Positions 14,101 to 17,100 of a stretch of DNA of 64,000 bases are shown here, piece after piece. Every line of letters starts with the position of its first letter. Positions within the stretch are counted from its first letter, which is position 1. Origin of the DNA: Escherichia coli O157:H7 (GTDB taxonomy: Bacteria; Pseudomonadota; Gammaproteobacteria; Enterobacterales; Enterobacteriaceae); the NCBI RefSeq assembly GCF_013167455.1, contig NZ_CP038328.1; one strand, given 5' to 3'. The position numbers are program-made.

Positions 14101-17100
14101 TTACCGCCGCAGCCGTTCCGGCTTCTTCCAGTGGTACGTTATTTTTTCTTTCTCCCGATACAGTTCAACGCGGCGATTGTAGGCCAGCATTTCAAGAACG
14201 CGGTTCCGTATGTTGCGCATATCAACGCCATTAAGTTCTATACCATCACGGCGCATCACTTCCGCTACAACACGCACATAATTTTCAGCGGTCACGCTGT
14301 CCGGCTGTGTGGCCTGTTCGTCATGCTGCTGGCTGATTCCGGCGACGCGGCGGATTAATCCCAGTAGTTCGGCTTCTGTCATTGTGCCCCCATCGCTCTG
14401 ATAGTCTGGTGTCGTCGGGTCCTTCCTGGAATTATGGCCCGTTACGGGGCGGCGACCTCGCGGTTTTTATCTGTTTATGAGAATTTTCCGGCAAAAGTCA
14501 GATCCGATCTTCTTCTCTGTAACAGACTGTTTAACAATGAAAATATTAAAAAAAGAAAGGATCTGACACGAGGCATTTTAGCCAGAAAATGCCATTATCA
14601 GATCCTTTCTCATTTTTGTTCAATAATTGCGCGTCTGTTACTCGCCTTTCTTCTGTAGCAACTTTTCCGGTACGTTTCCGGTTGTTTCTTTCAAGTAATC
14701 AGCCAGTATCTGTGGGAGGTTGTCGGCAACTCTGGCACTGGCATTACAGGCTTTAACCACTTCCCTTTTAAGCCTGTCCAGCATGGCGGGGGTAATCTGT
14801 GGGAAGCTCCTTTGCATAGTAAGCGGGAGGCTGTCCATGATTGATGAAATCTGACTCGCCAGCTTTGAAAGCGCGTACAGGCAAAACTCAGTATCAATCA
14901 CGTCACCGCGATCGCGATCGTTTTTAAGTTCCTGCGCCTCTGCCTGTGCTGTCAGTAATCTGATCCTGACTCGTAAAAGTTCATCATCGTCAATCTCGCC
15001 TTTGTCGTTTATAAGCTGGCTAATTGCATTGTTAACCCTATTTTCTATCACGCTGGCAACATCATAAAACGCCTCACGGCCTTTACGCTCAACGGGAGTT
15101 ACTCCCCACTTGTCGAACGCTGTCGCACTTACACGGCAGCTTTTCGCCATGTTTTTTTTGTTCATCAGATGAGATTTCATTAATACACCAACTTAATTAC
15201 TGCTTCAGGTTGGTGTATTGCTTGCATCTTTCCCTTTTCATTCATAAAGATAGATCAAACAACAAAACCACCACCACCACCCTGAAAAGGCTCATAAATA
15301 GCGAAAATCCGCGAGGTCGCCGCCCCGTAACGGGCCATAATTCCAGGAAGGACCCGTAAAAAAGCCGGATTTCTCCGGCCTTGTCTCAGATGGTTTTCAG
15401 TATGCGATCGATGTCGCCGTCATCGCCCTGGTTTCTGCCATCGTATGCCATGCCAGCTGATACGGCTTGCGGGCTGTGCATGTCCATAAAGTTTTCAAAG
15501 GCTGCGGTAAGTTCCGGCGCAACCTTCGGACGTTCCTGCTCTATGGTCATGCTAAGGATGCTTTTAGCCGTACCAACATCGATACAAGGCACGTTTGCCA
15601 TTGCACGCAACAGCGGCTGATAGTCTTTATGCTCATGAAGCGCCATAATCGCATCAGCGCACGGCTTGTCCTGCTCTTCCAGTTTGTTTAGTTGATATAC
15701 GGCCTCATAGGTTGATAAACCTCTGTCAGCCATTGCCCGCGCTTCGACTTTAAATTTACTCGCCAGCGGTAGCGTCATGATGCTTTCATTCGTTGCCATC
15801 GTTCCCCCTGCTTATCGGGCCAGCGGCTGAACGGATACGCCGGAACCCGCAAAGGCGGCGCATTTTTTCGCATCGGTGTCGACGCTCTCAGGCCAGTTAA
15901 CGGCGGCAATATTGAATATCCCCGTCTTGTAACACTGTGCTGATTTCTGCTTTGACGTGTCCACAGGGTACGAGGTCAGATAAACAGCCTTGCCAGATTC
16001 CTGACCATCCCACGGCTTAAACTCGCCATTGTCTGCCAGCATCAGCGGGGTAAATTCCTGAATAACGCCAGCATCAGCGGCAAAATGTACCAACGTCGTG
16101 GATACCTGCTGACTGCCTGCAAATAACTCAATGTATGGAGTGTCCATAGAATCCCCCCGTTAACCAATTTTGACGGTAACAAATTTGCGAATATCTGCCG
16201 GTACCGGCTGCGGTGCACTGTGTGTCTGCACGTACTCAATCGCCGGATCGCCGTCCTCAATCCAGTTTTTCGGGTAAAACATGTTTTGTGTTGCGCCCGT
16301 TCTTACCGCTTCCTGATCCATTATCGCACCATAGGCCACCAGCCCTTTATTGTTGGTGTTACCCAGGACCAGCAAATCAGGCTCAAGGAAATATTTTTCG
16401 GTACCATCGCTGTCAGTGTATTTGCCGGAATAGACGATAAGGGCCAGATCACCAAGATAGCCTTTAAAGCTCACCACTTCGCCCAGGTTTTTACAGGCCA
16501 GTTCGGCGGCGGATTCTGAACCACGGGAAAGATCGTACAGCTCACGGAATTTTTTAAAGCTGCGTAATGTGCGCCATACCTCAGCGCCCATAATCATGAC
16601 GTTTGCGGGGCAACCAGCCTGATCAGCATAAAGCTCGATGTCATAGATTGGGTCGTGCATGTCTTTATCCTGCTCGGACCATTTTTTACCCTTGGCCTGC
16701 TCTATGATGCAGTTTTCCGGTATTTTCCAGTCGATTTCATAGCGTTCTATGCCTTCGCCCTCAATGATGTTTTTTCCGGTCGTTACCGCATTCACCGCCA
16801 GCCATTCCACGCGTGCCTTAATGGCGTTTATCTGGCGGCGCATGTTGCCAGTAATCAGGCGCATACGGCGATAGGTAGGGTCGTTAAGCTGTGCCGGATC
16901 TTCTCCAGCCATGCGCATGATGGTTTTCGTTGGATCGATTTCGTGCTTTGGCTTCATGTAGCCAGGTTTGATTGTGCTGGTTTCGTACCCTTTATCGCGC
17001 TGAACCTGGCTACCCACCATAGGCGAACAAAACGCCGACATGGTGACTTCTTCAATGTCCAGGGTATCCAGCATGATGTTTTGCGTGCTGAATGTCGCCA

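Follow-up and report, generated by a model that had tools for sequence, protein, structure and literature searches.

This study concerns a packaging module in a 64,000-nucleotide (nt) stretch of Escherichia coli O157:H7 DNA (contig NZ_CP038328.1, assembly GCF_013167455.1), hereafter the window. The module belongs to the satellite island known as Sp7, CP-933C and O-island 51 (OI-51; PMC3378721), which occupies positions 13587-24584 (10,998 bp) between phoQ and roxA. Two lambda-type cos sites face each other there across terS (14638-15180, minus strand), which encodes a 180-aa small terminase of the Nu1 family and is annotated as "terminase small subunit" in RefSeq. The site named cos1 (15181-15356, minus strand) points leftward into the 5' end of terS, and the site named cos2 (14416-14636, plus strand), a complete phage-type cos, points rightward into its 3' end.

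The repeat finder recovered the pair as inverted arms of 76 nt (14416-14491 and 15281-15356) that are 91% complementary and separated by 789 nt. Their outer 48 nt (14416-14463 and 15309-15356) are exact complements, which confirms the 48-bp inverted repeats with a lambda-type cosN described in an earlier reading of this DNA (the original prediction). Each arm consists of CGGGTCCTTCCTGGAATTATGGCCCGTTACG-GGGCGGCGACCT-CGCGG, within the layout cosQ-GTTACG-GGGCGGCGACCT-CGCGG-I2. The cosN 12-mer, GGGCGGCGACCT, occurs twice in the window, once per strand (14447-14458, plus; 15314-15325, minus); about 0.17 matches per window are expected by chance, and two copies were reached in 1 of 100 shuffles. The original prediction had also allowed that the likeness to lambda might end with the 12-mer. 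Alignment extended it well beyond: both copies share with lambda cosQ (GGGTCCTT), GTTACG, cosN, CGCGG and the I2 stretch TTTTCGCTATTTATGA, and both matched about 90 lambdoid phage cos regions by blastn (lowest E 1e-18). Plus and minus copies alike therefore carry a lambda-type cosN with cosQ upstream and I2 downstream, and the proposal of two complete cos sites pointing at each other is borne out by the sub-sites, the alignment and the blastn matches. The whole 1.2-kb arrangement was found in one collinear piece in 482 complete E. coli genomes. Among the genomes that matched, 324 showed at least 99% identity to the query, and the window is 100% identical to many O157 genomes.

The two sites have only the cosQ-cosN-I2 core in common. 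Their cosB arms are unrelated: when forced into a global alignment they agree at 73 positions out of 135, a background level of likeness. A tandem duplication or assembly artefact is ruled out by these unrelated arms and by the recurrence of the structure in hundreds of independent complete genomes. Two lambda-type cosQ-cosN sites with different cosB arms thus enclose a packaging-specificity gene, the arrangement of the phage-inducible chromosomal island (PICI) module. Neither site leads into a co-oriented pair of terS and terL genes: the plus copy meets terS in antisense, and the minus copy, the only one oriented with the Nu1-like gene as had been proposed, runs into terS without a terL.

In cos2, on the plus strand, a cosQ-like element GGGTCCTTCC (14418-14427) precedes cosN and I2 (14459-14491), and these are followed by R3 (14497-14514), an I1-like spacer (14515-14547), R2 (14548-14567) and R1 (14598-14616). 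The three R sites were also picked up by the repeat finder, as its inverted repeats I4 and I2. The plus copy, in which an IHF site lies among the three R sites (R3-I1-R2-R1), does carry the more lambda-like cosB, as originally predicted. Its R sites read TCAGATCC(T/G)TTCT, and the lambda counterpart is GTCGTTTCCTTTCT. Close relatives of cos2 are found in ordinary phages. From cosQ to R1, the O157 site is about 80% identical, column for column, to a prophage cos of strain 2017C-4173W12 that lies immediately upstream of terS, terL and portal genes. The cos2 of EcCICFT073, the related island of strain CFT073, shows 97.3% identity over 149 nt with the cos of phages PhiR12_1-5, situated between Rz and Nu1/A. 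Other islands hold other types in this position: an mEp460/phi458-type cos with a different cosN in strain CFS3313 (86-88% identity), R sites reading ACAACAACC in strain SW4848, and a CGACAT-type cosB in strain PM4-5. By these matches, cos2 is evidently a copy of an ordinary lambdoid phage cos, interchangeable in its slot.

The cos1 site is of a different nature. On the minus strand, its cosQ-like element (15345-15354), cosN and I2 (15281-15313) are joined to a satellite-specific cosB, cosB1 (15181-15280), with a GGTGGTGG run at about 15267-15282 and ACACCAACC / GGTTGGTGT repeats at 15182-15193 and 15208-15219. When R sites were sought in it, repeats were present (the GGTGGTGG run and ACACCAACC), and the second half-site varied across islands. 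For comparison, 80 loci of islands with this gene (TerS-type) were recovered from IMG/VR, of which 72 were informative for the second cos. In 80 of 80, cosB1 was 83-100% conserved and lay directly upstream of terS; in the phage collection, blastn gave no match to cos1 beyond I2. Because of this constant position and the lack of a phage match past I2, cos1 is, on sequence grounds, a site private to the satellite that is passed on together with its own TerS. Some TerS-type islands (L066-L076 and L007, at about 3170-3200) combine the same cosB1 with a non-lambda cosN in cos1 (GGGCGTCAGGCG, GGGCGGAAGGCG, GGGCGGAGACCT and others), which suggests that the cut site has become adapted to the large terminases of other helpers. 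Those inspected that carry cosN GGGCGTCAGGCG have no cos2.

The terS product is full-length: it matches phrog_57 over profile positions 8-193 of 199 (E 8e-53) and is 38% identical to lambda Nu1. Among islands its N-terminal DNA-binding part is nearly invariant, unlike that of phage TerS, and its C-terminal half is lambda-like. A PDB sequence search with the 180-aa protein returned nothing at E <= 0.01, and thus no direct structural anchor to Nu1 or RppC. Two scans of species-representative genomes found no relative of the TerS-type gene, and a promoter scan found no convincing minus-strand promoter for terS.

The kind of feature seen here has already been described. Fillol-Salom et al. reported in 2018 and 2019 a cos1 upstream and a cos2 downstream of rppA in EcCICFT073 (PMC6092414, PMC6739421); the O157 sites are the counterparts of these two, terS occupies the slot of rppA, and the O157 copy is a TerS-type variant of that module. 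In the EcCICFT073 genome, two GGGCGGCGACCT sites lie on opposite strands around rppA (c1503), and the sequences printed in the supplement match the genome. A plasmid with either site can be transduced by lambda and phi80; island transfer requires cos1, the site that RppA stimulates, and deletion of both sites, and only that, abolishes transfer (PMC6092414, PMC6739421). The 2018 paper mentioned TerS-encoding E. coli PICIs without characterising the class and observed no transfer of two of them (PMC6092414), and the 2019 paper on Rpp left open why PICIs have two cos sites (PMC6739421). The words "inverted" and "orientation" are absent from the main text of both papers, and nothing in their searchable text refers to the inverted orientation, to a phage origin of cos2 or to isomers that differ by inversion. 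The original prediction is thus partly supported: its account of layout and polarity stood, but it had missed the known cos1/cos2 arrangement, and cos2 is no duplicate of cos1.

Variation of cos2 among the 72 informative loci bears on whether the second site has a function. A complete second cos was present in 42, so that the refutation named in the original prediction, a second copy peculiar to this strain, failed to hold. By type, these comprised 14 TCAGATCC-type, 14 CGACAT-type and 10 mEp460-type sites, 2 others, and 2 with a third cosN. The slot in which they lie has as its limits the cos core and the final ~34 nt ahead of the terS stop codon. All 42 were convergent with cos1. A truncated cos2, in the same form each time (cosQ and 8 nt of cosN, fused to the stop codon of terS), was found in 9 of the 72, and 21 had no second cos. 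This truncation is a recurrent 181-bp deletion, present in islands at different chromosomal sites (L002, 11140-11160; L009, 2640-2660; L056-L060 and L062-L065, about 3045-3083); it starts at the ninth base of cosN (GGGCGGCG|), reaches to the stop codon of terS, leaves the junction GGCGGCG|GTTACTC and removes cos2, and its presence at different sites means that a cos2-less lineage has spread. Apart from this one deletion, nothing supported the excisable cassette that the original prediction had entertained. A further case is an island of another type in E. coli SW071618 (L006, 3930-4470), with a DUF927 primase and a ProQ-like gene: its two convergent cos, with a third cosN type, lie about 430 bp apart, have different cosB arms (TCAGATCC-type and CGACAT-type) and enclose a ~60-nt remnant of the terS 3' end.

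Loss on this scale could mean that cos2 is a functionless relic of recombination with a helper, neutral or slightly harmful and in the course of being lost, with cos1 alone of importance. The absent and truncated sites, the identical deletion in islands at different sites and the rise in lambda-mediated transfer of EcCICFT073 after deletion of its cos2 would all fit such a relic, as would the failure to find a cognate cosB outside the island in the O157 genomes listed. Against a relic, cos2 is complete from cosQ to R1 where it is present, and at least five phage-type variants in the slot, some 97% identical to real phages, point to repeated and recent replacement rather than decay. In EcCICFT073, moreover, a plasmid bearing cos2 was transduced, and residual island transfer disappeared only when both sites were deleted. 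A mere relic is therefore considered unlikely.

The segment between the cos sites was also found in the opposite orientation. Inverted isomers were sought with a synthetic junction unique to them, composed of the flank of the 93-aa open reading frame (orf93) next to cos2, the cos core, cosB1 and the 5' end of terS. Counted per genome and not per event, the inverted TerS-type junction was present (100% of its length, in one piece) in 5 complete genomes and the standard junction in 493, and in the analogous test of Rpp-type islands 24 genomes were inverted and 64 standard. L011, L012 and L097 were confirmed to have the inverted structure, and inspection of two of the five TerS-type genomes placed their islands at different chromosomal sites. 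The inverted TerS-type order is orf93(-) / cosQ-cosN-cosB1-terS(+)-cosB2(reversed)-cosN-cosQ / scaffold gene(-); I2 and cosB travel as parts of the segment, and the cosQ arms remain in the flanks. In our reading of the sequences, the copies in L011 are identical over only ~24 nt around cosN, which confines the exchange point to those ~24 nt, including cosN. The terS genes of two inverted TerS-type islands are 94.5% identical, and their closer, non-inverted relatives stand at 95.6% and 97.3%. Since each inverted island has closer non-inverted relatives, more than one inversion event is suggested. Strain WP4-S17-ESBL-08 (L097) provides an Rpp-type case: its island lies at the same phoQ locus, its RppA and 93-aa proteins are identical to those of CFT073, and over the 727 nt of the inner segment it matches CFT073 at 100% identity, in the reverse orientation. 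In L097 the cosQ arms on the two sides are the same, which makes its repeat longer, and the ~24-nt bound holds for L011 only. Both cos copies likewise share a cosQ arm in O157 (48 nt exact), while in CFT073 (L003) the arms differ and 25 nt around cosN are identical; this pattern implies gene conversion between the copies in some lineages.

The invertible cassette of the original prediction is thus upheld in that natural islands carry the segment, between inverted repeats, in both orientations; nothing suggests a programmed switch. Such a switch, in which orientation would set terS or rpp expression or packaging polarity, would account for the two orientations in nature (5/498 TerS-type and 24/88 Rpp-type genomes), for the island otherwise identical to CFT073 over its 727-nt segment, and for inverted islands that are each closer to non-inverted relatives than to each other. 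It is nevertheless judged highly improbable. No dedicated recombinase lies in or beside the segment, which holds terS or rpp only and has the scaffold-like gene and the 93-aa ORF (open reading frame) as neighbours; the only recombinase is the island integrase, ~8 kb away. The repeats are nothing other than the two cos sites. The cassette has its own upstream region and follows a terminator, so that flipping need not alter expression, and the 324 genomes mentioned above are all collinear with the window, the listed O157:H7 genomes showing one orientation. Single cultures are not known to be mixed in orientation.

The lambda cos is polar: initiation needs cosN and the cosB on one side of it, and termination needs the cosQ on the other. 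Where two cos sites stand in direct orientation, cutting loses or duplicates the DNA between them. Against this background, the preferred reading, to which a probability of about 0.6 is given, is that the island has two packaging entry points of different helper specificity, set in the sole orientation that avoids cos-to-cos deletion, and that inversion is a by-product. After helper induction, the island would excise and replicate into concatemers. The satellite TerS would bind the cosB of cos1 and recruit the helper large terminase, which would nick the lambda-type cosN. By a second route, a helper with a TerS that recognises TCAGATCC-type R sites could start at cos2 with its unmodified terminase and package in the opposite direction. 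Given the polarity of cos, with cosQ upstream of cosN, a run should pass over the inverted site and continue until it meets the next copy of the site at which it began, so that whole island units would be packaged; direct orientation would instead yield cos-to-cos products lacking or duplicating terS. Packaged molecules would be expected to start with GGGCGGCGACCTCGCGGATTTTCGC when cut at cos1 and with GGGCGGCGACCTCGCGGTTTTTATC when cut at cos2. Among the roles put forward in the original prediction, an alternative packaging entry or direction is the best supported. In line with the preferred reading, Sp7 of O157 Sakai excises, circularises and is packaged into DNase-resistant particles (PMC2669165).

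The 24-48 nt shared around cosN would also allow the segment to flip, either by recombination or by terminase cutting at both sites. A segment cut twice would have the same 5' overhang at both ends and flanks complementary to it, and could be religated either way without RecA. Inversion is most simply viewed as a by-product, and the data do not separate the terminase route from recombination across 24-48 nt. A bolder version is a terminase-operated cassette, which would flip by such religation, thereby accounting for inversions with an exchange point in the ~24 nt around cosN, and in which joining of cohesive ends with helper DNA would load a new cos into the cos2 slot. This version is regarded as doubtful; if true, the island would hold one private site and one updatable site matched to the last helper family, which would answer the question of why there are two.

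Convergence of the sites would carry a cost, since packaging runs from the two would meet head-on if both were in use. The loss of cos2 in many islands and the increase in lambda-mediated transfer after cos2 deletion in EcCICFT073 agree with such a cost. The same conflict is part of the idea that cos2 serves mainly as an interference decoy, capturing helper terminase so that phage packaging is reduced and colliding head-on with cos1 runs. The authentic phage-type cosB of cos2 would suit a decoy, interference with the packaging of helpers at the TerS step is a known trait of PICIs, and convergence would drive a cos2-bound motor into the cos1 region. A single cos per ~11-kb unit would be a weak sink, however, and terminase that started at cos2 would still package island DNA, the same outcome as with an alternative entry point. 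Interference by EcCICFT073 was, in addition, mapped to Rpp and not to cos2. The cos2-deletion result (PMC6092414) is a cost to the island and has no bearing on titration of helper terminase. Taken together, a role mainly as a decoy seems very improbable.

Several points weigh against the reading of two entry points. The TCAGATCC-type cosB occurs as one copy in each O157 genome listed, which indicates that no cognate helper is resident; for the same reason, a match of cos2 to a resident O157 prophage was not supported. Truncation or absence of cos2 in 30 of the 72 related loci shows that the site is dispensable. The 42 convergent cases are not independent, since the variants appear to have been swapped within a fixed slot, and descent, rather than selection, may account for the constant orientation. 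Binding of the satellite TerS to cosB1 is inferred, with their linkage as its sole basis. In EcCICFT073, deletion of cos2 increased lambda-mediated transfer (PMC6092414), so the site can be a cost. Finally, transfer of Sp7 from O157 Sakai to K-12 was not detected (PMC2669165).

The module is flanked by two genes, both on the minus strand. Beside cos2 lies the 93-aa ORF (14101-14382; phrog_1561, E 3e-58), the last gene of the island, which adjoins the cos2 slot in every related island examined. Beside cos1 lies a 137-aa gene (15386-15799; phrog_1999) that resembles the C-terminal scaffold part of lambda Nu3/gpC and matches the C-terminal part of phrog_53, a head maturation protease (E 5e-9). 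After this gene, a terminator-like hairpin (15357-15385, minus strand; GCCGGA-GAAA-TCCGGC followed by TTTTTT) abuts the cosQ of cos1 with its T-run. The hairpin has a predicted RNA fold of -18.3 kcal/mol (z-score -2.8), is kept in CFT073 and is absent from the list of a simple terminator scan.

The island as a whole is bounded by the 21-bp direct repeat ACTACACCATTAACTACACCG (13587-13607 and 24564-24584), the probable att core, which contains an internal 9-mer duplication (ACTACACC..AACTACACC). Its genes encode a P4-like integrase, an AlpA-type regulator, a RepA-family helicase, Ssb and a PerC-family regulator, together with homologues of lambda E (capsid), D (decoration) and Nu3 (scaffold), TerS and the 93-aa ORF; no large terminase gene is among them. 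An island of PICI type is thus found at a dedicated att site, with P4-like int, alpA, a primase/helicase gene and unidirectional genes. NCBIfam gave no match for any of six island proteins. Membership of the capsid-forming PICIs (cf-PICIs; EcCIEDL933) was ruled out, as that is a different island of 15.4 kb with HNH, TerL and portal genes. The E (351 aa), D (111 aa) and Nu3/gpC C-terminal scaffold-like (137 aa) homologues lie at 15386-17215 on the minus strand, and EcCICFT073 has the same genes; the 2018 paper, in contrast, describes EcCICFT073 as lacking capsid morphogenesis genes and using full-size capsids (PMC6092414). A lambda head could take four 11.0-kb units (44 kb). The replication gene (19166-20566, minus strand) encodes a 466-aa "helicase RepA family" protein, where EcCICFT073 has a 584-aa primase-family protein; Asadulghani et al. 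reported that the alpha-like gene of Sp7 is broken by frameshifts and that the island nonetheless replicates and is packaged. Outside the island, the annotation of L001 points to a lambdoid prophage remnant at about 2300-5400 (holin, Q antiterminator, excisionase and integrase) beside icd and upstream of the rluE-nudJ-mnmA-hflD-purB-phoPQ block.

Sp7/CP-933C carries regulators of O157:H7 type III secretion (RgdR, PerC family regulator), and the way it is packaged is thus relevant to how virulence modulators spread. A single modular packaging architecture is common to TerS-type and Rpp-type islands. In the literature searched, the phage identity and modular turnover of cos2, its constant convergence and the inversion isomers were not found. 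These comparative data make the two-cos question testable, in terms of a private and a helper-matched entry, an orientation constrained by cos polarity and, possibly, terminase-mediated inversion.

Among known systems, EcCICFT073 is the closest. It shares with the O157 island the locus (roxA-phoQ), the backbone and the gene order, and has a convergent pair of lambda-type cosN around a specificity gene, with cos1 upstream bearing a non-phage cosB and cos2 downstream. Its slot, however, holds a 144-aa Rpp in place of the full-length 180-aa TerS. Rpp proteins are of ~144-153 aa, with a TerS-like DNA-binding domain and a dimerisation domain, and RppA matches just the N-terminal DNA-binding part of the TerS profile; the O157 gene is not of this kind. 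Its product is a full-length member of the Nu1 family and is 13% identical to RppA, and the module is therefore classed as a TerS-type variant. Both cosB arms also differ in sequence between the two islands, and the exact repeat is 25 nt in EcCICFT073 and 48 nt in O157. Lambda itself has the identical 12-nt cosN and similar cosQ and I2; the plus copy of the island has the R3-I1-R2-R1 series, and a Nu1 homologue is enclosed. The O157 R sites, however, read TCAGATCC where those of lambda read GTCGTTTCC. The island also lacks a gene for the large terminase, terS follows the plus copy in antisense, and two facing sites share a genome of ~11 kb.

The satellites P4 (with P2) and SaPIbov5, a Staphylococcus aureus pathogenicity island (SaPI; with cos phages), offer a parallel to cos2, which resembles a helper-type cos copy read by unmodified helper terminase; the E. 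coli islands described here add a satellite-private cos with TerS or Rpp, and their helper-type site is variable and often lost. The pac-type SaPIs, with TerS_S, are similar in that a satellite homologue of TerS presumably redirects the helper large terminase to satellite DNA. The O157 system differs from them in being of cos type rather than headful, in having no identified Ppi-like partner and in being known here from sequence. Lambda derivatives with a cos duplicated as a direct repeat (the classical "Ter" cutting) showed that terminase can use either cos of one molecule. In those derivatives the segment between the sites is lost on packaging, whereas the convergent layout of the O157 island would avoid this loss and permit inversion.

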